DNA of 28,227 nucleotides from positions 1 through 28,227 of the forward strand of contig CAZULU010000003.1 in NCBI GenBank assembly GCA_964621585.1. The letters are read 5' to 3'. Below, piece after piece: positions 2,429 through 17,702 of the stretch. This DNA is from an uncultured Pseudomonadales bacterium. GTDB taxonomy: Bacteria; Patescibacteriota; Microgenomatia; UBA1400; PJMF01. Position 1 is the stretch's first letter. Each line of letters begins with the position of its first letter. The translations under genes were made by a program, and so were the position numbers. The notes beneath the pieces are model-generated. The model was given only the letters and a program-made list of their open reading frames with translations, was not told the origin of the DNA and did not search any database.

Positions 2429-3277
2429 TTATTTAATTAATCCGTACACAAATTGTATCAATCTGTTGTGTAGAGAGTGTAAACCAATCAGAACAGGATT
2501 GGAAGTATAACGCTGAGCAACTTGAAGCTCTTCTTGAAATTGTTTGGTAAACTGCGAACCACCTTTGGACAAGCCATGAATTCGAAATGCTGCTAATGGT
2601 TGTGCGAGAAGGATTGGCTCACCAGCAGTTTTTCTGAGGCGTAGCCAGTACTCGTAATCCATCGTGTAGCGAAGGGCTGTATTAAACAAACCAATCTGTT
2701 GGATAGCTTCCCATTTAATGAATGTCGCTGGTTGGGGATACGGATTGAGGATAAACAGAATCCAAGACGGAAAGATTGTGCGAAAAAACTGCTTATACCA
2801 ACGAACTGGTCGCTGGATTTCTTTGTTGTGCTCATCGATGATCACTGCGTCCCCGACTACCCATTGTTTGTCTGGGTTCTGTTGAAACGCCTCAACTACT
2901 TTTGTAAAAGCATCCGGTAGATAGTAATCATCAGAATTGATATACGCAAAGACTTCTAAAATGTCATCCTCGCGAAGGCGGGGATCCATATTGGGAAGTG
3001 AATCAGGCATGGATTCCTGCCTTCGCAGGAATGACGAGAGTCCTTTATTTATTGCATCAGTTTGACCTTTATCCTTTTCTGACTTCCACCGTACCTCTTT
3101 TCCATATGTCCTAAGGATCTCCACACTCTCGTCAGTCGATTTGGCGTCCATCACCACATATTGCACCTCAATCTGCCTAGAATGTTGTGCGAGAACCGAA
3201 TCAATTGTTTGTTTCAAAAACTGAGCCTGGTTAAAGGAAGGAGTGACAATATAGAAGATTGCAGTAGGTTGTGACAT
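2429..3277 (-). CDS. Glycosyltransferase family 2 (WfgS/WcaE-like), carrying an in-frame REP-like insertion
   Basis: IVTPSFNQAQFL, VMDAKSTD, DKGQTDAINKG, AYINSDD, PQPATF, YTMDYEYWLR, AAFRIHGLSK. Confidence 0.9.
   Translation of the reverse strand: MSQPTAIFYIVTPSFNQAQFLKQTIDSVLAQHSRQIEVQYVVMDAKSTDESVEILRTYGKEVRWKSEKDKGQTDAINKGLSSFLRRQESMPDSLPNMDPRLREDDILEVFAYINSDDYYLPDAFTKVVEAFQQNPDKQWVVGDAVIIDEHNKEIQRPVRWYKQFFRTIFPSWILFILNPYPQPATFIKWEAIQQIGLFNTALRYTMDYEYWLRLRKTAGEPILLAQPLAAFRIHGLSKGGSQFTKQFQEELQVAQRYTSNPVLIGLHSLHNRLIQFVYGLIK
2962..3036. repeat. Inverted doublet of CGTC-type REP-like palindromes (REPIN/RPE-like), in frame within the GT2 gene
   Basis: Left arm 2963-2989 GTCATCCTCGCGAAGGCGGGGATCCAT matches the reverse complement of right arm 3009-3035 (GTCATTCCTGCGAAGGCAGGAATCCAT) at 22/27 positions, with a 19-nt spacer. 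Each arm is itself an 8-bp hairpin with a GAAG loop. The outer tags are TGTC and CGTC, and the tag-to-tag length is 75 nt. Confidence 0.85.
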
Positions 3278-8210: not shown

Positions 8211-9068
8211 TTATTTGTTTGTGTTTTGTAATCGTTCAACCTCATACATTTCCCAGAGCTTCAAATAGGCAACGCAATGATGTAAGCCACTATATACCGC
8301 AAAGACAAATCCTGGATAACCATCAACAAATCCTTTGTGACGAATAAATAAACTAAACCAAGTACTAAATGGCTTAAAAAGCATGAATCTTAACGAATTG
8401 TAGAAAGAGATGGTAACTCTGGCATCTCTAAGCTGAGTAGCTTTAAAACTAGTATACGTATTCCATTTACGGAGATACTCTTCAAAAGTTGGGTTGCCAT
8501 AATGGAGTAGATGTCCGTTAGCCCATCCTACTTCTCCATCGACTACCATTTGCTCGTGTACATCCTTTTGTGGTAAGCGCGCTTTTCCTTTTTGATACAA
8601 CCTGATGACAGGATCCGGATACTGTCCACCCTTTTTTAAGAATGAGCCTAAAAACCAATTTTTGCGTTTCAGCCACCATGCAGCGGGCAAAGTGATATTA
8701 TCAATGTGTTTGTCATTCTTGACAGTCTCGTCATCCTGAACAATCCCGTCATCCTGAACTTGTTTCAGGATCTGACTATGCGTCTGCTGAATAAACAATG
8801 CTAATTCTTCGTCCACAATTTCGTCAGCATCAAGTTGCAATACTAGATCTCCTTTGGCTTTATCCATCGCCATTTGCTTATTGATATGAAAATTTGCCTT
8901 ATTGGTAGTTGAGTGTACTTTAGCCCCGAGTTTTTTGGCTAACGTTATAGTTCCATCAGTGGACTCGCCATCCACGATAATGATTTCATCAGCAAAACTT
9001 TTTACAGACTCTAAGCACTTCTGTAAATTTTTTTCTTCATTGTGAGTAGCAAGTACAACTGAAATCAT
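8211..9068 (-). CDS. GT2, WaaE/KdtX/LgtF-like beta-1,4-glucosyltransferase family, carrying an in-frame REP-derived insertion
   Basis: ISVVLATHNEEKNL, DEIIIVDGESTDGT, LQLDADE, RKNWFLG, YPDPVIRL, VHEQ, LLHY, GFVDGYPG. Confidence 0.9.
   Translation of the reverse strand: MISVVLATHNEEKNLQKCLESVKSFADEIIIVDGESTDGTITLAKKLGAKVHSTTNKANFHINKQMAMDKAKGDLVLQLDADEIVDEELALFIQQTHSQILKQVQDDGIVQDDETVKNDKHIDNITLPAAWWLKRKNWFLGSFLKKGGQYPDPVIRLYQKGKARLPQKDVHEQMVVDGEVGWANGHLLHYGNPTFEEYLRKWNTYTSFKATQLRDARVTISFYNSLRFMLFKPFSTWFSLFIRHKGFVDGYPGFVFAVYSGLHHCVAYLKLWEMYEVERLQNTNK
8711..8773 (+). repeat. CGTC-type REP-like hairpin plus two truncated or degenerate 18-nt tandem copies, in frame (antisense) within the GT2 gene
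   Basis: 8747-8773 is CGTCATCCTGAACTTGTTTCAGGATCT, with a perfect 8-bp stem ATCCTGAA/TTCAGGAT and loop CTTGT. It is preceded at an exact 18-nt period by CGTCATCCTGAACAATCC (8729) and TGTCATTCTTGACAGTCT (8711; 12/18 identical to the 8729 unit). Confidence 0.75.
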
Positions 9069-9086
9069 AGTGATCTTTCTTGAATG

Positions 9087-9095
9087 ATTATAGCA
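9087..9095 (-). promoter_or_regulatory. Putative extended -10 promoter (TGCTATAAT)
   Basis: Perfect TGnTATAAT consensus in the 35-nt gap, ending 18 nt before the ATG at 9068. Confidence 0.55.
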
Positions 9096-9103
9096 AGTTT
9101 CAC

Positions 9104-10750
9104 CTAGTATTCCTTAACTTTCCATGAGTTACCATTCCAATACAATAGCACTTGTTCATTGAATCGATCATTTTCGTCTTTAATAAATCGATATCTACTC
9201 ACTTGTTCTCCATACCGGAAATTAATTGTATCTGAATTTTGCTTTACAACGGAATTGAAAAAATCTTGCGGAGGGATCTGCAGATACCAGGCTGTCAGAA
9301 CATAATGAAATCCTCGAGTATCAATGACGGCAACCGGCTCGCCAGGATAATCTTGCTCGATCTGTTGTAACACGTCGTCATATCCAGGCTGTAATATTGA
9401 TTGGTATTTCGTACTATCCTTGTACTGCAAAAAGTAAAACTGTAGATACGAACTGGCTTCCCAAACAAGAATCATCATGAAAAATCCCATCCATAGTATT
9501 CTCGTTATCTCTGGGTGAGAAGCTACTTTACTCAGCATGTAGCCGATAAGTTTTACGCCTTTGATACTTACTATTGAAAGGATAATGAAAAAAAGTAGTG
9601 TGCGCGTTGCATGAGGAGCGTTCACAGTGATGCTGGCCGGAAATAAGGATACTACTAACACCCAGAGTAACAGCAAGTCATTCCACTGCAGTATTGGTTG
9701 CTGCACTTTTCGATGGTGCACCAGTCCAATGACCACATGAATGAGATTGTATAAAACTCGGCCCAACAATACCCCTATCCCAAGTAATCCAAAAGCGAAA
9801 ATAGAGACATAGACATATCCCCTATCTGGTACGGCATGCCACGGATGTCCACCAGTGTTGTACAAAAGAAAAGAAGGATCAAAACTTGCAATATAATTTC
9901 TTGAGATTTTTGTAAGATAGAATACATACTGGTTACCGAAGATTGTTTGCCAGATACCGGAAAATGATGATCGGTAAGGAATATATTCTGCTATAAATGT
10001 GCTTTCTGAAAAGATGGTGATTTGACTTTTTTGCTGATTAAATGACTGAAGTGCTACAAAGCAACTCGACCAAACTCCAAACATTATGAACAATGTGATC
10101 AACCACTTTTGCCAGTGCTTTACTCCGCGCAAAAATGGTAAAGGCATTACCACTAAGGGAATCAATAAGAATGGAGCATTGTAGGTAAAGTATGATACTC
10201 CAACCAATATGACAGCTAATCCATCATATAGATATTGTTTTGGTCGTACCTTGTAGAGTAAAACCATTACGGCCATAGTCAACGCCAATGCGACCATTGC
10301 TTCAAAGGCTACGCGTGAATAAAAAATAAATACAGGGAGCAAGGCTACTACGGCTGCTGCAATTCCGGATTGTCGACGAGAAAGCAAGAATAGTGAACTC
10401 AACTTATAGGTGAGAAAAATGATAGCTGTACCAGCTGCTGCTGCCCAGAATCGAACTGCAAAATCACTATAACCGAAAACTAAAAAAGCTACAGTTGTTA
10501 ACAGAGGATATACAAAGGGTTTTTGATCTCCAAATGCTTCAAGAATGATAGGCCACCGTCTCCCCCATTCATCCGTTCCAGTCTCGCGTAGCAGATAGGC
10601 GTTATATGCAATTGAAGCTTCATCTGGGTTAAGTATAGCGGGGATCGCTCCGAGTTTATAAAAACGGCTAATAACAGCGACAACAATAACAGCTGCTATA
10701 AACCATGGAAATAATTTGATGATAGAGTCAAATAGTACTTTCAATCGCAT
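9104..10750 (-). CDS. GT-C membrane glycosyltransferase (ArnT/PMT_2-like), array member 5 in transcription order
   Basis: Polytopic; PAILNPDEASIAYNAY..TGTDEWG..FGDQKP..FGYSDFAVR; late motif APHATR; soluble C-terminal domain. Start moved from the GTG at 10762 to the ATG at 10750, 1 nt after the upstream stop. Confidence 0.85.
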   Translation of the reverse strand: MRLKVLFDSIIKLFPWFIAAVIVVAVISRFYKLGAIPAILNPDEASIAYNAYLLRETGTDEWGRRWPIILEAFGDQKPFVYPLLTTVAFLVFGYSDFAVRFWAAAAGTAIIFLTYKLSSLFLLSRRQSGIAAAVVALLPVFIFYSRVAFEAMVALALTMAVMVLLYKVRPKQYLYDGLAVILVGVSYFTYNAPFLLIPLVVMPLPFLRGVKHWQKWLITLFIMFGVWSSCFVALQSFNQQKSQITIFSESTFIAEYIPYRSSFSGIWQTIFGNQYVFYLTKISRNYIASFDPSFLLYNTGGHPWHAVPDRGYVYVSIFAFGLLGIGVLLGRVLYNLIHVVIGLVHHRKVQQPILQWNDLLLLWVLVVSLFPASITVNAPHATRTLLFFIILSIVSIKGVKLIGYMLSKVASHPEITRILWMGFFMMILVWEASSYLQFYFLQYKDSTKYQSILQPGYDDVLQQIEQDYPGEPVAVIDTRGFHYVLTAWYLQIPPQDFFNSVVKQNSDTINFRYGEQVSRYRFIKDENDRFNEQVLLYWNGNSWKVKEY

Positions 10751-10751
10751 A

Positions 10752-12554
10752 TTATTGAGCACGTTTGTTCGTCATTTCGCCGTCTGATTCAGTAGGCATT
10801 GATTCATATATCCCTATTTCAAAGCGGAGATTTCCAACACTGTCAAAAATCTCCATCCTTTTTGAAGGAACAACTTGCAGATTTCCTGGTGTTGCAATCA
10901 CCATGGTGGGTTTGGGCAAGTTTTGTAGGTTCTGCCATTGCATGGTTCGAAATTTAACCTGGTCTAAGTGTCCCAAGCCATTGTCTACGTACTCAAAAGA
11001 CTGATAATCCTCACCAGTGTAGTCACCATATATCATTAACCATAGATAAAAACGACCATCATTAACATCAGCAATAATACTCGGGTAACTGTCCTTTTCT
11101 TCATGGATAAAGCGTGCCAATTCTGAGTATCCACTCTGCCAATATTGAGCACTGCGTTGTGGATAGTGACCAAAATAGTCATGTAAAAACAAGCCAGTTT
11201 GCAATCCCACTGTGAACAGTATCATCCCAATAAATATTTTTTGATACATGGCATTCTTTTGAATAAATAGTTTGTGCAGCATCACCGCCAAACCAAAACC
11301 AATCATAAGCACGAGTGGTGTAAGCGCATTCAGGGAACGCAGTGCATGGGGAACTTCCTCTGGAACTGAGGCCGGCAACAAGGCAATTATCCACCACAGT
11401 GTAAGTACGGCCAAAACTCTCCAATGAGACCGTGCAAGGGTGAGTAAACCAAAGATCAAAACAGGCAGTAAACTGAACACAAACAAACCATGTTGGCCAG
11501 TACCGTGACGAAGATTTTGATCACCTGTCATAAATAAAAACTCAAAACGTACGTTTTCTGCATAATTTCCCAATAATTCTCGAAGAAGTAAAAAGTGTCG
11601 ATGATAAAAAACTCTAGACAGTGGTCCATTCCCCGCCCACTCACGATACATGTTGGACTGCATGGGAAGGTCAAACACATTTAAAATAGATTTTGCACTT
11701 AGCCGCATCGCTTGACTGGGCTGATAGTGAACAGATGTGTACAAAGGTGTCAAGAGTACTCCCCACAACACAAGCGAAAACACGATAACAAGCAGCTTTT
11801 TGATCATGCTTTTTCTTATTATTTGACGAAGAAAATCACTCCAGTTTTTTTGCGTCCAGAAAGGACTCAATACTTTGATACCATCAGGGAGATAGGACAG
11901 TACCACTATGGCTACGAAAATCACAGGCCACACAAAACGTACACTATAATAGCTGTACACACTGATTGCTCCGAGTAGTGCACTGAATGGATATAACCAC
12001 ATACTTCGCTGAGCCTTAAGAAGGAATAATACAGACAATGAAACAAAAAACTGTCCCAGGTGTCCTTCAAAACCATTACGAGAAAACATCACTGACCAGG
12101 GGGAAATGGTTACAATAAGTGCGGAAGATACCATCCATAATTTCTGAAGAAAGAGAGAAGCTCTTTTGCGAGTCGACCACCACCAAAGCTCCTGAGCAAG
12201 AAAGAAGAGTAAGAGAATTTGGGCAGTCCCAAAAACTGCACTGGGTAACCGGAGCGACCACTCACTCGTCCCAAACAACCAAACACTGATTGTACTGAAC
12301 ACAATATATGTAGGCAATTTAAAGTCGCCGTAAGAAAAAAACATTGGCTGAATTCCTGGGTCCCCATGCATGTCTTTGCCCGTTTCTGCAATTGACTTCG
12401 CGTCAACAAGCATAGCAATCTCATCCCAATATAATGAGACTGGTACTTCACCGAGTTTATAAAAACGTATCAATGTTCCAACAAGAATGAGACTGAAAAT
12501 CGTACATTGTAACCAATATTTTCTGATAGTCGTTGTGTGGAGAAGCTTTTTCAT
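10752..12554 (-). CDS. GT-C membrane glycosyltransferase (ArnT/PMT_2-like), array member 4
   Basis: PVSLYWDEIAM..TGKDMHG..YGDFKLP..FGTSEWSLRLPSA; GDQNLRHG; VPHALR. ATGA overlap with the upstream paralog. Confidence 0.85.
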   Translation of the reverse strand: MKKLLHTTTIRKYWLQCTIFSLILVGTLIRFYKLGEVPVSLYWDEIAMLVDAKSIAETGKDMHGDPGIQPMFFSYGDFKLPTYIVFSTISVWLFGTSEWSLRLPSAVFGTAQILLLFFLAQELWWWSTRKRASLFLQKLWMVSSALIVTISPWSVMFSRNGFEGHLGQFFVSLSVLFLLKAQRSMWLYPFSALLGAISVYSYYSVRFVWPVIFVAIVVLSYLPDGIKVLSPFWTQKNWSDFLRQIIRKSMIKKLLVIVFSLVLWGVLLTPLYTSVHYQPSQAMRLSAKSILNVFDLPMQSNMYREWAGNGPLSRVFYHRHFLLLRELLGNYAENVRFEFLFMTGDQNLRHGTGQHGLFVFSLLPVLIFGLLTLARSHWRVLAVLTLWWIIALLPASVPEEVPHALRSLNALTPLVLMIGFGLAVMLHKLFIQKNAMYQKIFIGMILFTVGLQTGLFLHDYFGHYPQRSAQYWQSGYSELARFIHEEKDSYPSIIADVNDGRFYLWLMIYGDYTGEDYQSFEYVDNGLGHLDQVKFRTMQWQNLQNLPKPTMVIATPGNLQVVPSKRMEIFDSVGNLRFEIGIYESMPTESDGEMTNKRAQ

Positions 12555-14245
12555 CGTTGGTATACCCGCCAGATAATTTGACCATGCAAATCAATAACAG
12601 TATCTAATAATTTGCCACCAATCTCTTGGTATTTTTCATCTGAGCTGGCAATCAGTCCGCGAGTCCCACTATGTATTGCATCAGAAAAAGTAATATTCTC
12701 GAATTCTAGGAACTCACTTTGATCCTTATGGACTGTTTGTGATGCATTCTGAACAAGTTTAGGATTAGTTTTGGAATAAAACCAGTAATACATAGCTGGA
12801 CGACCCTCTTCTCGAGAGATAGTTACAGCCTGATTAGGTTGCATATGTTGCTGAACACTGGAAACCATTTGTTGATAGCCGAACTGCCAAACTTGAGCTG
12901 CTTCTCGAGGATAAATTCTATAGTAATAATGGCTAAACATTGTAAATTGTAGAATATAGAGCCCCGTCACTCCAATGATTATGAAGCACTGCATACGCTT
13001 GTTTTTAAAGAATTCTACTACGCCTACTACTCCCGTGGTAATTGTGAACATCCACACAGCCAATGAGGGTAAGATTCGTAACGCATGTGGTGATCCAAAC
13101 GTTATCGATGCTGGAAGTATCGCAACAACTAACCAGAACCCTAAAAACAAGTATTCTTTCATTCTGTATAGTTTATAGAACCAAATAACATACACACCAA
13201 TCACCAGAAAAATAAATTCAATGTGATAGAGCTGTCCCATATATTGTATGGAGTGTCGAAGATTTGCATCACCGGCAAGAAATAAAAAGGACGGATGAAA
13301 GTGAGAAATAAAGTTTCCCAGAATTTCTTGGCCAAACAATATATATCGATGGTGAACAAGCCGTGCTAGTTGTGTATTTCCATCCTCAGCTATGAGTTCA
13401 TTACTTTTTTCAATGACAGAAATATCGGAAAATATACTAGTTTCTGCAAACCGCTGAGACGTCTGCTTTTTCCCAAGCGAGAGTAGCAACGGAGTCAGCA
13501 ATACTAGAGAAATACCTAATACTCCTAACAGCTTTGGCAATGTAGCAGCAAAATGCGACTTGAGGTGTCCTAGCCATGGCAAGCTAATAGCAATCCCCAA
13601 CATAGGGGCAATAATTCTCGTGGCATGATACGTATACATCGACAGAATAAAAAGAACTGCTGAACCCATCAATAAAAGTACGCTTCTAGTACTGTTACCC
13701 TTCCAACTTTTCAAGCCCAACCAAACTCCCCAAGTAATAAAACATGTGGCTAGGTTCACTTCCCATCCTGCTCTCGAAAACTGCACTGCCCAAGGCGAAA
13801 TAGTTGTTACTAGCATTGCAACAATCATCGCCAAATTTGACCGTACAGCTTGTTTTTTCGCTGGTGTTGTTTTTTGAAGCGAAAACAGATGTTGGGTGAG
13901 TAGACCAATCGCCAGAACAGACAGCGTGCCTGCTATCGCTGAGGGCAGTCGTACTGCCAACGTAGATAAACCAAAAAGTTTGATAAACGGAATAATTGCA
14001 TAAAAATACAACGTGGGTTTATAGTCTCCAAATGACTCAAAAGCTACGATCGGAAAAGCATTTCCATGATGATCCTTGCCGGTCTGTAAAATAGAATACG
14101 CATCATACCCCAGTGCAACTTCTTCCCAATACGGTGATGGTGGTACCTGATCGAGTTGATAGGTACGAATAATAAACGCACATAATACAATTAGGCTCAC
14201 GCTGAACCAAATAATCCAATGGTGATTTTTTATCCAATTGTGCAC
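12551..14245 (-). CDS. GT-C membrane glycosyltransferase (ArnT/PMT_2-like), array member 3
   Basis: PPSPYWEEVALGYDAY..TGKDHHG..FGDYKP..FGLSTLAVRLPSA; GDANLRHS; SPHALR. GTG start 2 nt after the upstream stop. Confidence 0.85.
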   Translation of the reverse strand: MHNWIKNHHWIIWFSVSLIVLCAFIIRTYQLDQVPPSPYWEEVALGYDAYSILQTGKDHHGNAFPIVAFESFGDYKPTLYFYAIIPFIKLFGLSTLAVRLPSAIAGTLSVLAIGLLTQHLFSLQKTTPAKKQAVRSNLAMIVAMLVTTISPWAVQFSRAGWEVNLATCFITWGVWLGLKSWKGNSTRSVLLLMGSAVLFILSMYTYHATRIIAPMLGIAISLPWLGHLKSHFAATLPKLLGVLGISLVLLTPLLLSLGKKQTSQRFAETSIFSDISVIEKSNELIAEDGNTQLARLVHHRYILFGQEILGNFISHFHPSFLFLAGDANLRHSIQYMGQLYHIEFIFLVIGVYVIWFYKLYRMKEYLFLGFWLVVAILPASITFGSPHALRILPSLAVWMFTITTGVVGVVEFFKNKRMQCFIIIGVTGLYILQFTMFSHYYYRIYPREAAQVWQFGYQQMVSSVQQHMQPNQAVTISREEGRPAMYYWFYSKTNPKLVQNASQTVHKDQSEFLEFENITFSDAIHSGTRGLIASSDEKYQEIGGKLLDTVIDLHGQIIWRVYQR

Positions 14246-14247
14246 TG

Positions 14248-16008
14248 TTACAGTGTATCTGGTGTAAATTTAATTAGGTACCAGATATCCTTAGAGAATT
14301 CTGAAGAGAATTCTTGTATAAATTTATATCGTTGATCTCCATCCATAAAATCTTTCAATTCTTTTTTTTCAAGCACATAGTATATTATTGAACTCTGCTT
14401 CTTATCTTCATCCCATTCTATCTCACCAAATGTAAGATTTCTCAATTGCTTTACATGAACAAAACCTTCGTCTGTGGGAGGATAGAAAGTAATGTGCTGA
14501 TCAATAGGTGAGAAAGTACGGGGATAGTAGAACAAGAAATAAATATATGGAGAGCTCGCTTCTCCTTGAAAACGTACTATTTGCTTCTCATCAAAAGATT
14601 GCATTACAGTATGTGTAATCTCTTTCATATGCCACGGCCAGCGATCAACATCCATTTTTGGAAAAATATAAAAGTAGGTAATCACAAATTGAAAGACCGA
14701 ATACACACAAACAAAAGACAAAGCAACAAATGAAAGTCTCTTGAGTAGATTTCCTTGAAATGTGTTCCGAAAGAGCGTCGCTGCTCCAAAGGCTGAAACA
14801 ATAACTAGCGGTACAAGTGCGGGAATAAATCGAATTGAGTGATCAGGAGTAATAGTAATAATTGGGGCTAGCGAAGCTATCACTAACCAAGCCAACAAGA
14901 ATTTTTGCCAGTATACCCTACTTTTTACCCACGTATATAACCCGACAGTAACAAATAGTACTTCAATGAGATAAAAATTGGCAATGTAACTAATATTATG
15001 TAAATTGCTGGAGTTACCGACAAAGAGAAATGTTGGATTCCATAATGTTAAAATGTTTCGAGTTACTGAAGTAATGTATATCGTGGCTCTATTTGAGTAG
15101 AGTTTGGCAAGAAATGGATGCAGCTCCCCGACTATCTGTCGTTTGGTGAATAATTCCTCTCGGTAGCGATGTTCAGCAAATGGAGAAACTCCTCCAAACT
15201 TGGTGGCATTTGCGCTGCCACTGCGTGCTATCAACACCATCATCATACAGGCTATCACTATTACCCCCGACATAAAAAAGACTGTTTTGTGATGTTTGAA
15301 CAGGTCAATTAAATGATCACGGTATAAATACAGAAGGTAAAAACCCATTACTGGGGTAAAGACTTGAAAAGAGTGATAGCCAAACAATGTAATACCAAAA
15401 CACAAAGCTGCAAGAGGAAACAACCATACTAAGTATTTTCTCATCCATCGTTCAGCTGACAAATTTCTCTGCAGTGCCATCAAAAAGAATGTGAGACCTA
15501 AAAGAAAAAATGCGAGAGTGACATTAGCTTCATACGCAACTCTAGATAGATGTACTGCCCAGGGATTAACGGCTAAGAAACCTCCGACTACCACTGGCAT
15601 CCAGCGAATTAACGGAGTTTGTTTCTCCTTCTCCAATAACAATCTCGTCACAATCACAGACAGTACCACTATCGCGATCCCCGCTAGAGCAGATGGTAAT
15701 CGCACACTCCATTCATTGAGCCCAAATGCTGCAATTGAGGGAATTGTTAGGTACACATATAAAGGAAGTTTCCAGTCTCCAAATGACTGAATGTTGATTG
15801 GAAAGGCTATCCCATGCTCTTCTTTTCCAGTTGTAAGTATTGAATAGGCAGTGTATCCCAAAGAAGCTTCATCTCGATTCAGCGCTATAGGAATTTCCCC
15901 TAGCTTCCAAAACCTTAAAATGACGGCTATACAAAGAACAAAAAATACTATGACAATCTGAAATCGAGAAAATGGAGTGTGCTGAAGTCGTAGTAGAAAA
16001 TTTCTCAT
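14248..16008 (-). CDS. GT-C membrane glycosyltransferase (ArnT/PMT_2-like), array member 2
   Basis: PIALNRDEASLGYTAY..TGKEEHG..FGDWKLP..FGLNEWSVRLPSA; PDHSIR. ATG 2 nt after the upstream stop. Confidence 0.85.
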   Translation of the reverse strand: MRNFLLRLQHTPFSRFQIVIVFFVLCIAVILRFWKLGEIPIALNRDEASLGYTAYSILTTGKEEHGIAFPINIQSFGDWKLPLYVYLTIPSIAAFGLNEWSVRLPSALAGIAIVVLSVIVTRLLLEKEKQTPLIRWMPVVVGGFLAVNPWAVHLSRVAYEANVTLAFFLLGLTFFLMALQRNLSAERWMRKYLVWLFPLAALCFGITLFGYHSFQVFTPVMGFYLLYLYRDHLIDLFKHHKTVFFMSGVIVIACMMMVLIARSGSANATKFGGVSPFAEHRYREELFTKRQIVGELHPFLAKLYSNRATIYITSVTRNILTLWNPTFLFVGNSSNLHNISYIANFYLIEVLFVTVGLYTWVKSRVYWQKFLLAWLVIASLAPIITITPDHSIRFIPALVPLVIVSAFGAATLFRNTFQGNLLKRLSFVALSFVCVYSVFQFVITYFYIFPKMDVDRWPWHMKEITHTVMQSFDEKQIVRFQGEASSPYIYFLFYYPRTFSPIDQHITFYPPTDEGFVHVKQLRNLTFGEIEWDEDKKQSSIIYYVLEKKELKDFMDGDQRYKFIQEFSSEFSKDIWYLIKFTPDTL

Positions 16009-16010
16009 AG

Positions 16011-17702
16011 TTAGGGTTGCAGTTGCTTCGGAGTAATAATCACAAACTTGACTTCACCATTGGGAGCAATAACTACATCATCAGCTTTTGTTGGCGAGAT
16101 TTGCTGAGGAGTTGCAATAATCAACGTGTTATGACGGAGCAAGTCTGCTTCAGAAATTCTATCTGTAAATTCATATTTAATAAGTGATCCACCTTGGTAC
16201 CAAATTGGATTTGTTTTTCGAGCAAATAAAGCATAAATATACGGTTGACCATACGAAGAAGTAAACAGAATTTTGTCAGCTGTATCTTCGTATTGTTTGG
16301 CATATTCCATAGCTTGCTCATAACCATAGTAGAAATCTGTTGAAGAATCTTGATAAAACTGTGAAAAATAGCGATGGCGGTAACTTAAGAATAATACGCT
16401 ATGCAGTAAGAGGGTCATACCAACGATACTCCTGAAAATATTTAGAACATCATCATTGCTAACGTGAAAACCAAGTATCTTAATGTGGGGGAGCCTTTTT
16501 TCTGAGATAAATGAAAGCAGTCTCTCAACAGCGACTATACTTGCCAACAGAAAACCAGGATATGCAATGAGCGCTCTAATAGAGTGCGGAACTTCTACTC
16601 CAATTGCAGCGGGAACTATTCCCAAAATTATCCACCCCACAATGAAAACTAGACCCTGATTTTTGAAACTTACCGGCACTCTATTTAGATATTTTTGCAA
16701 GATAGTCGCAAGAAAAATCAGCAACAACAGCGCTTCAGTAATCAATAAGACCCCCCAGTGACCGTCACCATGTCTTAGCGAAGTGGTTTGTCCCCAAATT
16801 AAAAACTGTGGTGATAGATGACGCCAGAAGTTCCCAAATGCAATTCCTAACTGAGAGTACCAATAAGAATCTGAATGAAATATTGAGGTCTGTGTAAAAC
16901 GGTCGCCACCACTCCCCCACAGTGTATCTATTATCATTGGACGCAAAAGGATAAGGCCAACCACTGTAGCAGTCATCACTGGAAGTCGGTGCTTCCAAAA
17001 AGTCTTAAAATGAAGAACAAACACGAAGAGTAAAAACAAGGGCACAAATACTTTGGCACTATGATAAGCGTAAAGAGAACATACAAAATTCACACTCGAG
17101 AAAAAAAGTATTGAGAAATGTAGAAATGGCTTCTTGAACTTCTGCTGTAAGAAAAGAATTAAAAATAAAGTTCCCCAAATAATAAAAAATAATGAGATCC
17201 CTGCTTCAAATCCAGCTCGCGAAAAATGAAAATGCCACGGAGATGTTGTTAATAGAAAACCACTCATAAGCGACAAAACTTGCACTCTTCTTTGAGCAAG
17301 CTCTGGAGCATAAAATTCCAGAAATGACTTTGTTAACAAAATCACTCCCAGCACACTTCCTACTCCTGCTAAAGCAAAGGGTAATCGCACTGCCCACAAA
17401 TTTAGTCCAAACACAAAAGTAAAAATACCACTCATGTAAATTGCTAACGGTGCTTTGAAATCACCAAAGGATTTGAATGAAACTGGCAATCGAACCAGCC
17501 ACTCGTCTCGCCGTGTCGTGACAATAGCATGTCCATTGTATCCGATTGCAGCTTCATCCCAAGTCATACCGGCCGGAACAACACTCAACCTATCTAGGCG
17601 TAGAAATAGCGCAATTGCCATCAATATTGCAGTAACTATGACAAACCAATGGCGTACAATGAAGGGAGGAAATACAGAGGAGGGTGATATTTCTTTTGAC
17701 AC
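16011..17702 (-). CDS. GT-C membrane glycosyltransferase (ArnT/PMT_2-like), array member 1
   Basis: PAGMTWDEAAIGYNG..TRRDEW..FGDFKAP..FGLNLWAVRLP; TSLRHG; VPHSIR. GTG start, so the exact start is less certain. Confidence 0.85.
   Translation of the reverse strand: MSKEISPSSVFPPFIVRHWFVIVTAILMAIALFLRLDRLSVVPAGMTWDEAAIGYNGHAIVTTRRDEWLVRLPVSFKSFGDFKAPLAIYMSGIFTFVFGLNLWAVRLPFALAGVGSVLGVILLTKSFLEFYAPELAQRRVQVLSLMSGFLLTTSPWHFHFSRAGFEAGISLFFIIWGTLFLILFLQQKFKKPFLHFSILFFSSVNFVCSLYAYHSAKVFVPLFLLFVFVLHFKTFWKHRLPVMTATVVGLILLRPMIIDTLWGSGGDRFTQTSIFHSDSYWYSQLGIAFGNFWRHLSPQFLIWGQTTSLRHGDGHWGVLLITEALLLLIFLATILQKYLNRVPVSFKNQGLVFIVGWIILGIVPAAIGVEVPHSIRALIAYPGFLLASIVAVERLLSFISEKRLPHIKILGFHVSNDDVLNIFRSIVGMTLLLHSVLFLSYRHRYFSQFYQDSSTDFYYGYEQAMEYAKQYEDTADKILFTSSYGQPYIYALFARKTNPIWYQGGSLIKYEFTDRISEADLLRHNTLIIATPQQISPTKADDVVIAPNGEVKFVIITPKQLQP

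Follow-up and report, generated by a model that had tools for sequence, protein, structure and literature searches.

In an uncultured, ultra-small bacterium whose relatives are labelled Patescibacteria in public records, a gene for a family-2 glycosyltransferase (GT2) carries a complete CGTC-tagged repetitive extragenic palindromic element (REP) within its reading frame, along with two tandem 18-nt partial copies of the tag-side half of that hairpin. The gene lies in a stretch of 28,227 nt (contig CAZULU010000003.1, positions 1 to 28,227, assembly GCA_964621585.1; hereafter the window), part of an 898-kb source genome that is in 125 contigs, 84% complete and 41% G+C. It is very likely that a selfish REP was tolerated in frame and that a local 18-nt duplication followed, neutral for the enzyme. 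Under this scenario, the REP would have become fixed in a conserved Patescibacteria GT2, at the end of a helix, where a permissive surface loop begins. In the lineage leading to this window, two tandem duplications would then have copied 18 nt consisting of the tag, the arm next to it and 5-6 bases of flank, possibly through hairpin-promoted slippage or the repair of a nick. The loop would thus have gained 12 repeat-derived residues, the frame being kept because 18 is a multiple of three.

The hairpin, its half-units and the host protein

The features at the locus are collected in Table 1. The first-pass annotation, made from the sequence alone, had described a CGTC hairpin with a perfect 8-bp stem preceded by two progressively decayed 18-nt copies, and this description was confirmed. 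On the forward strand the partial copies CGTCATCCTGAAC and TGTCATTCTTGAC are spaced at exactly 18 nt upstream of the full REP, with 16/18 identity between units 1 and 2 and 10/18 between units 2 and 3. The tag reads CGTC in the first two units (8747-8750 and 8729-8732) and TGTC in the third (8711-8714). In the coding register of the reverse strand the three units are GTTCAGGATGACGGGATT, GTTCAGGATGACGAGACT and GTCAAGAATGACAAACAC, and they encode the periodic antisense peptide that had been proposed, QVQDDG-IVQDDE-TVKNDK, as residues 103-120 of an intact GT2. Both differences between units 1 and 2 are non-synonymous, as would be expected of a recent DNA duplication and not of a conserved peptide repeat. 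The hairpin has a folding energy of -12.4 kcal/mol (z = -3.1), and in a period scan 18-nt triples of this quality occurred once in the 898-kb genome, at the 8711 array, and never in shuffles.

Table 1. Coordinates, in the window, of the host gene, the REP and its tandem half-units
Feature	Position	Strand	Description
Host GT2 gene (P0001)	8211-9068	-	285 aa, uninterrupted frame, family-2 glycosyltransferase
Complete CGTC-tagged REP	8747-8773	+	CGTCATCCTGAACTTGTTTCAGGATCT; - strand reading (Q)ILKQVQDDG
REP parts	8747-8750 (tag); 8751-8758 (5' arm); 8759-8763 (loop); 8764-8771 (3' arm); 8772 (tail)	+	Tag CGTC; 5' arm ATCCTGAA; loop CTTGT; 3' arm TTCAGGAT; tail C
Tandem half-unit 2	8729-8746	+	Tag + 5' arm + C (CGTCATCCTGAAC, 8729-8741) + 5-nt spacer; 16/18 against the matching part of the REP
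Tandem half-unit 3, decayed	8711-8728	+	TGTCATTCTTGAC (8711-8723) + spacer; 10/18 against unit 2, exact register; encodes TVKNDK
Codons of residues 107-129	8684-8752	-	Low-confidence coil between helix 87-106 and strand 130-139; contains repeat-derived residues

The host protein matches PF00535 with an E value of 6.6e-19 and retains all 62 columns that are invariant in an alignment of 65 orthologs. Given that every invariant column is retained, the gene looks functional, with the insert decorating a surface loop. In an AlphaFold2 model built from the 65 orthologs (mean pLDDT, the predicted local distance difference test score, 89.3), the first arm of the REP extends the helix, and the coil that follows falls to a pLDDT of about 55. 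The repeat-derived residues are predicted to form an acidic, disordered surface loop, and the extra residues are most likely neutral for the enzyme.

Dispersed copies, orthologs and strain differences

The first-pass annotation had taken the palindrome for a dispersed repeat type, and the genomic copies bear this out. At up to three mismatches, the tagged 25-mer of the element occurs five times in the source genome, while its reversed control occurs nowhere. Across 140 genomes of the family, nine carry the 25-mer (the source genome and 8/139 others, in 8/57 genera) at 1-22 copies each, and reversed controls gave no match throughout. The frames RHPELVSGS and VILNLFQDL, named in that annotation, are what the 27-mer element encodes. 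Compensated stem variants are found among the family genomes (GATGCTGAA..TTCAGCATGAC, GATTCTGAA..TTCAGAATGAC and GACCCTGAA..TTCAGGGTGAC), the CGTC tag is retained in genomic and foreign copies, and the exact 25-mer is present in other phyla, including a Lutibacter and a Sphingomonadales genome. The 29-mer at 8745-8773 reaches about 40 times the depth of its flanks in one sludge metagenome, where it lies on separate short contigs. A literature search with the sequence and peptide strings of the repeat returned unrelated primer matches only.

The source genome contains about 28 elements that share the frame GATCC-stem...stem-GGATGAC in several stem classes. They are mostly intergenic, and most lack a spanning open reading frame (ORF). 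One of them is the element at 2962 in the window, which differs from the element studied here in stem class and has the frame CGTCATCC...GGATC in common with it, as had been claimed.

An origin with no mobile element, in which chance or template switching from ancestral ATYCTGAAA (I-L-K) codons generated the palindrome and its periodicity on the spot, is very improbable. Such an origin would draw on the Q-I-L that already ends the preceding helix in REP-less orthologs (one of which reads ATTCTGAAAC) and is ancestral, and on single-copy carriers that exceed the modal loop by only 3-5 residues. However, the tagged 25-mer lies at four other places in the source genome and in eight other family genomes, as well as in Bacteroidota, Alphaproteobacteria and other phyla; it also flanks a nuclease gene on both sides (see below), and the reversed controls are all zero. 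The dispersed copies leave a local origin close to refuted.

Orthologs of the host GT2 bear on the history of the site. From the DADE motif to RKN the host has 51 residues and both paralogs in the window have 25, as the first-pass annotation had counted. The 26 extra residues deduced from this count stand relative to the paralogs; relative to orthologs the excess is about 16-20, and the preceding I-L belongs to the ancestral helix and not to the insert. Measured as the DADE..RKNxFL span, the host has 61 aa, its nearest relative P0005 has 45 aa and most orthologs have 40-42 aa. Over all orthologs the loop spans 36-89 aa, with a highly variable sequence and no conserved residues. P0005 (269 aa, 91% identical over aligned columns, 48 nt shorter) has only one copy, ATCCTGAAgCAAGTTCAGaATGAC, which is slightly decayed and occupies the same codons as in the host. 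A perfect single copy, AAGATCCTGAAACAAGTTCAGGATGACGGG, is found at these codons in P0009, an ortholog of 68% identity, and decayed or compensated hairpins occupy the site in P0006 and P0007 (ATTCTGAAA...GTTCAGGAT and ATTCTCAAtcaagTTGAGA).

The ortholog alignment that the first-pass annotation had called for also includes empty sites: in all 29 orthologs from other genera, the loop is free of hairpin and tag alike. Likewise, no REP was found in the loop of five orthologs from REP-rich relatives (G097, G153, G091, G154 and G095), so that REP load by itself does not account for occupancy. REPs recurrently land in this loop or are tolerated there, other types of them being present in the orthologs P0040, P0010, P0012 and P0016. 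The loop of P0040 (L038:37-960) is swollen to 89 aa by at least two other REP types; one of its elements is GATCCCCGC...GCGAGGATGAC with an internal insertion.

In a tree of the orthologs built with the loop masked, the host P0001 and P0005 group together (100/95) and, with P0008, are sister to P0006 and P0007 at weak support (84/23), while P0009 branches elsewhere, its position being weak. A single origin of the insertion is compatible with this tree. By parsimony, one copy was likely present first, and the two half-units were likely added later in the lineage of this window.

Strains in nature differ in the number of units. Contigs of four public runs from four studies were compared to 8300-9100. 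A 1270-nt contig of run X6, from sludge, covers 8550-9100 with 7 other letters over 551 nt and lacks exactly 18 nt at 8729; this allele has one unit fewer and an intact frame, in a strain about 99% identical. A 416-nt contig of run X7, from an aquatic sample, covers 8590-9005 with 4 other letters and no gap, and has all three units. The copy-number variation that the first-pass annotation had suggested looking for is thus present: two- and three-unit strains coexist in nature, and the array is still unstable. A search of Joint Genome Institute (JGI) metagenome contigs with the left flank plus REP gave no match and thus no further alleles from there.

That the three-unit array is an assembly artefact of the repeat is extremely unlikely. 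The contigs of run X1 do break around 8717-8746, as an artefact might lead one to expect, and these breaks might reflect co-existing alleles. Against an artefact, the 54-nt array is shorter than a read, and independent studies gave a three-unit and a two-unit contig, both in frame. Given the strain lacking 18 nt and the single-copy relatives P0005 and P0009, the proposal of the first-pass annotation that a REP seeded a coding minisatellite fits insofar as insertion came first and amplification later. Orthologs and strains form a series from the empty site through one copy and two units to three, which suggests that a conserved enzyme can acquire an unstable in-frame tandem repeat from a selfish hairpin that seeded it.

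Half-unit arrays in other genomes and a candidate nuclease

Expansion of the tag-side half is found well beyond this gene. Scanning one genome per species for TTCAGGATGACG-N6-TTCAGGATGACG, in which the spacer was fixed at 6 nt, gave 27 stretches, in Legionella, Lutibacter, Pedobacter, Sulfurimonas, Sphingomonadales, Armatimonadota, Gemmatimonadales, Acidobacteriaceae, Oligoflexales and others. In the typical arrangement, 2-7 units, each the 12-mer plus a spacer, adjoin the tag side of a full hairpin. Spacers are uniform within one array and differ from array to array, the pattern that local duplication of the tag together with its arm and flank leaves. When the gap was left free in a scan of five array genomes, periods ranged over 17-21 nt with a common 12-nt core; a period of 18 is therefore not intrinsic, although inside genes only 18- or 21-nt periods would survive. 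Arrays are strongly one-sided in Legionella quateirensis, with 16 on the tag side and 0 on the tail side. Most arrays are intergenic and some are in frame in real genes. With such arrays present both in intergenic DNA and in unrelated genes from other phyla, the expansion appears to be a property of the element, not an adaptation of the host GT2. Half-arrays across phyla, in and between genes, provide a testable handle on how the repeat is processed.

Two Armatimonadota genes (L067:3577-5118 and L081:5900-7999) carry this REP in frame, together with one or two half-units of 18 nt. The product of one is a MiaB-like radical-SAM enzyme; the other encodes a Pyr_redox-Rhodanese-TusA-DsrE fusion, where the insert is in the linker.

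The first-pass annotation had placed this array at a later stage of domestication than the 2962 element, a claim that finds no support in a repeat that forms a low-confidence coil, varies between strains and has counterpart arrays elsewhere. It is improbable that the repeat loop is a domesticated functional part, for example a variable acidic surface loop that tunes partner binding or varies between strains. The repeated uptake of different REP types by the loop (P0040, P0010, P0012, P0016), the retention of the P0007 hairpin with compensatory changes and the existence of copy-number polymorphism could be taken in its favour. However, the loop is disordered in the model and, among orthologs, variable in length and sequence with no conserved residues; the two non-synonymous changes that alone separate units 1 and 2 suggest recent DNA duplication; the same arrays are intergenic and in unrelated genes; and compensatory changes suggest that it is pairing in DNA or RNA that is constrained, and not the peptide.

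The partner of the element may be a nuclease. Small single-domain GIY-YIG proteins (Ssn) bind CGTC-tagged hairpins (NTS/SRM) as single-stranded DNA (ssDNA; Chenal et al. 2025, PMC11893778). The cut that SsnA of Neisseria meningitidis makes in ssDNA falls within the variable flank, about 3 nt upstream of the tag; binding by SsnA depends critically on the C that follows the palindrome; and Ssn genes (<150 aa) are typically flanked by the repeat (PMC11893778). In the relative G097 (contig C5; L094), a gene at 887-1171 for a 94-aa GIY-YIG protein (PF01541, 53.7 bits) has the exact 25-mer on both sides, at 803-832 and 1189-1217, inverted. G097 encodes 22 repeat copies and 7 paralogs of this GIY-YIG nuclease. 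The exact element thus brackets an Ssn-type gene in a relative, making Ssn a candidate partner and widening the Ssn/NTS pairing described in 2025 so that it takes in A+T-rich stems and a Patescibacteria-type lineage.

In the source genome, a homolog of 94 aa (C18:3372-3653; L099) is 57% identical to the G097 protein and is bracketed by CGTCATTCCTGCGAAGGCAGGAATCC and TGTCATCCTCGCGTATGCGGGGATCC. A CGTC REP abuts its ATG and inverted TGTC REPs lie 35-60 nt past the stop, which is the NTS-ssnA-NTS layout. A homolog of the nuclease was found in 6/9 REP-positive genomes vs 4/131 REP-negative genomes (Fisher p = 1.7e-6, a value that is overstated as kin are not independent). The published degenerate SRM string matches the sister class at 2962-2989 and three other places. 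Taken together, the element may work like an SRM, although it is not one by the published string. Four further small GIY-YIG ORFs, on contigs C87, C23, C17 and C93, are of a different subfamily and have no such flanks.

A REP-associated tyrosine transposase (RAYT) was considered as the partner and rejected, given the CGTC tag and the absence of PF01797 (Y1/RAYT) from all nine 25-mer carrier genomes, including the source genome, vs its presence in 24/131 non-carriers. Directly upstream of the P0009 ortholog lies a gene for a 174-aa Y1 (IS200-like) transposase (L037:7054-7578; PF01797, 36 bits). This gene was rejected as a partner, being unflanked by the REP and having no homolog in the source genome or in five carrier genomes searched; its position beside P0009 is probably a coincidence.

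With an Ssn-type enzyme at hand, the half-units could be footprints of a nuclease that nicks ssDNA a few bases 5' of CGTC, followed by faulty repair that duplicates the piece from the nick to the junction of stem and loop. This possibility is rather unlikely, and equally so its corollary that the element makes expandable arrays wherever it lands, genes included. The cut made by SsnA in the variable flank is consistent with units that here start about 5 nt upstream of the tag and end with the first loop base, as are arrays confined to the tag side, the common 12-nt core within periods of 17-21 nt and the co-occurrence of Ssn and repeat. Moreover, the last spacer base equals the last loop base in 9/10 arrays of other genomes. 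However, hairpin-promoted slippage explains the data equally well, and the link from Ssn to duplication is by geometry, not biochemistry. In the source genome, 84% complete, no Ssn flanked by this stem class was found; relatives rich in REPs and Ssn, such as G097, have no arrays; and the collection scan, fixed at a 6-nt spacer, does not make 18 nt special.

It is doubtful, and somewhat more so than a nick-repair origin of the units here, that tag-side half-copies (tag, one arm and 5-9 flank bases) are a general by-product of Ssn-type action on CGTC/NTS-like hairpins, with 18- or 21-nt units turning an in-frame insertion into a fast-evolving coding minisatellite. If true, bacteria with tiny genomes would have a built-in means to vary the surface loops of envelope enzymes.

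Several observations weigh against in-frame insertion of a REP followed by neutral half-unit duplication, as laid out above. At the locus, Tandem Repeats Finder with a minimum score of 30 reported no array over 8500-9000, because the array is too short and diverged, and the third unit (10/18) would be unconvincing apart from its register and the comparative data. The left arm overlaps the ancestral I-L codons, blurring the boundaries of the insert. The polarity of gain vs loss rests on parsimony over a weakly resolved tree, and the gap to P0005 is 48 nt, not 36, such that an extra 12-nt difference must be assumed. Perfect consensus copies in P0001 and in an ortholog as diverged as P0009 sit badly with one old neutral insertion, and suggest re-insertion, conversion or a constraint on pairing. 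Tag-side arrays are rare in REP-positive relatives, at 1 in 4 genomes. As to the nuclease, the only Ssn detected in the 84% complete source genome is flanked by other stem classes, and the published SRM string has no match to the 27-mer nor to either strand of 8700-8790.

Genomic setting and relation to known elements

Elsewhere in the window, 2962-2989 (forward strand) and 3005-3033 (reverse strand) form a head-to-head dimer of two other CGTC REP classes, TGTCATCCTCGCGAAGGCGGGGATCC and CGTCATTCCTGCGAAGGCAGGAATCC, read in frame as RRQESMPDSLPNMDPRLREDD inside the GT2 gene at 2429..3277. Both classes recur at the Ssn-type gene on contig C18, which they bracket. In the source genome, elements with the CGTC frame also lie inside long open frames of 207 and 439 aa, at C8:9103-9141 and C95:1434-1500, and may be additional in-frame insertions. 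Long variants of the element studied here, of 49-70 nt (C52:4777-4826, C82:1417-1466, C16:5676-5745, C73:3985-4033 and C95:1434-1500) have unchanged outer arms and a second, inner hairpin in place of the 5-nt loop, a form that is nested or like a miniature inverted-repeat transposable element (MITE).

The host GT2 is encoded in an envelope glycosylation cluster with GT4, GT2, PMT_2-like and PIG-V-like transferases and an epimerase. Within the window, a run of five genes for proteins of 552-600 aa occupies the reverse strand at 9104-17702. Pfam gave no match for four of them and a sub-threshold match to PMT_2 for the fifth; together they look like a paralogous run of GT-C-like membrane proteins.

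CGTC REPs were defined by an unpaired CGTC (or TGTC/CCTC) tag, a stem of 8-9 bp that starts with complementary A/T, a loop of 4-5 nt and a tail with the consensus CCA (PMC3733652). They are multi-copy, dispersed, mostly intergenic and unevenly distributed across related genomes, come without a tyrosine transposase, and in 2013 were said to have no dedicated enzyme (PMC3733652). Intragenic examples are known, including RPE-4 and RPE-6 of Rickettsia conorii (Di Nocera, De Gregorio and Rocco 2013, PMC3733652). The element at 8747-8773 has the tag, an 8-bp stem beginning with AT and a 5-nt loop, is dispersed and lacks a Y1 transposase. Its tail, here and in G097, is CTG, which shares only the first C with the consensus. 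In common with this class are the tag, the AT-starting 8-bp stem, the 5-nt loop, a dispersed and mostly intergenic distribution and occasional in-frame insertion encoding loop residues. It differs in its host, a Patescibacteria-type genome from a phylum outside the 2013 survey, and in its A+T-rich TGAA stem. In addition, the tandem copies here are of the tag-side half, whereas the grouped REPs of that survey are dimers and clusters of whole hairpins (PMC3733652).

Similarly, the element shares with NTS/SRM and Ssn the CGTCAT-stem-loop-stem-ATC architecture, the C after the palindrome, a flanked 94-aa GIY-YIG gene in G097 and the co-occurrence of repeat and nuclease. It differs in that the 27-mer is outside the published SRM string and the source Ssn is flanked by other stem classes. 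The study of Ssn makes no mention of tandem copies, intragenic copies or Patescibacteria (PMC11893778).

Rickettsia palindromic elements (RPE) are likewise selfish palindromes tolerated in frame at protein surface positions in a small genome, and Ogata and colleagues reportedly described their in-frame insertion in 2000. RPE-1, of about 100-150 bp, is much longer than the REP here, and to our knowledge neither tandem expansion of half-units nor strain-level polymorphism of units has been reported for RPE. REP/REPIN elements with RAYT are also short dispersed hairpins with a 4-nt tag; the tag here is CGTC, not GTAG.

With bacterial in-frame coding minisatellites, or variable-number tandem repeats (VNTRs), the array has in common a unit length that is a multiple of three and a copy number that varies between near-identical strains, its 18-nt units being arranged head to tail. 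It differs in that the unit is half of a mobile hairpin and that 2-3 units have been seen so far. Given the in-frame REPs of Rickettsia and of the 2013 survey, the kind of element and the kind of event are already known. What is added here is the tag-side half-unit expansion, which is apparently undescribed and absent from both PMC3733652 and PMC11893778, along with strain-level variation in copy number and the link to an Ssn-type nuclease in a Patescibacteria-type lineage.

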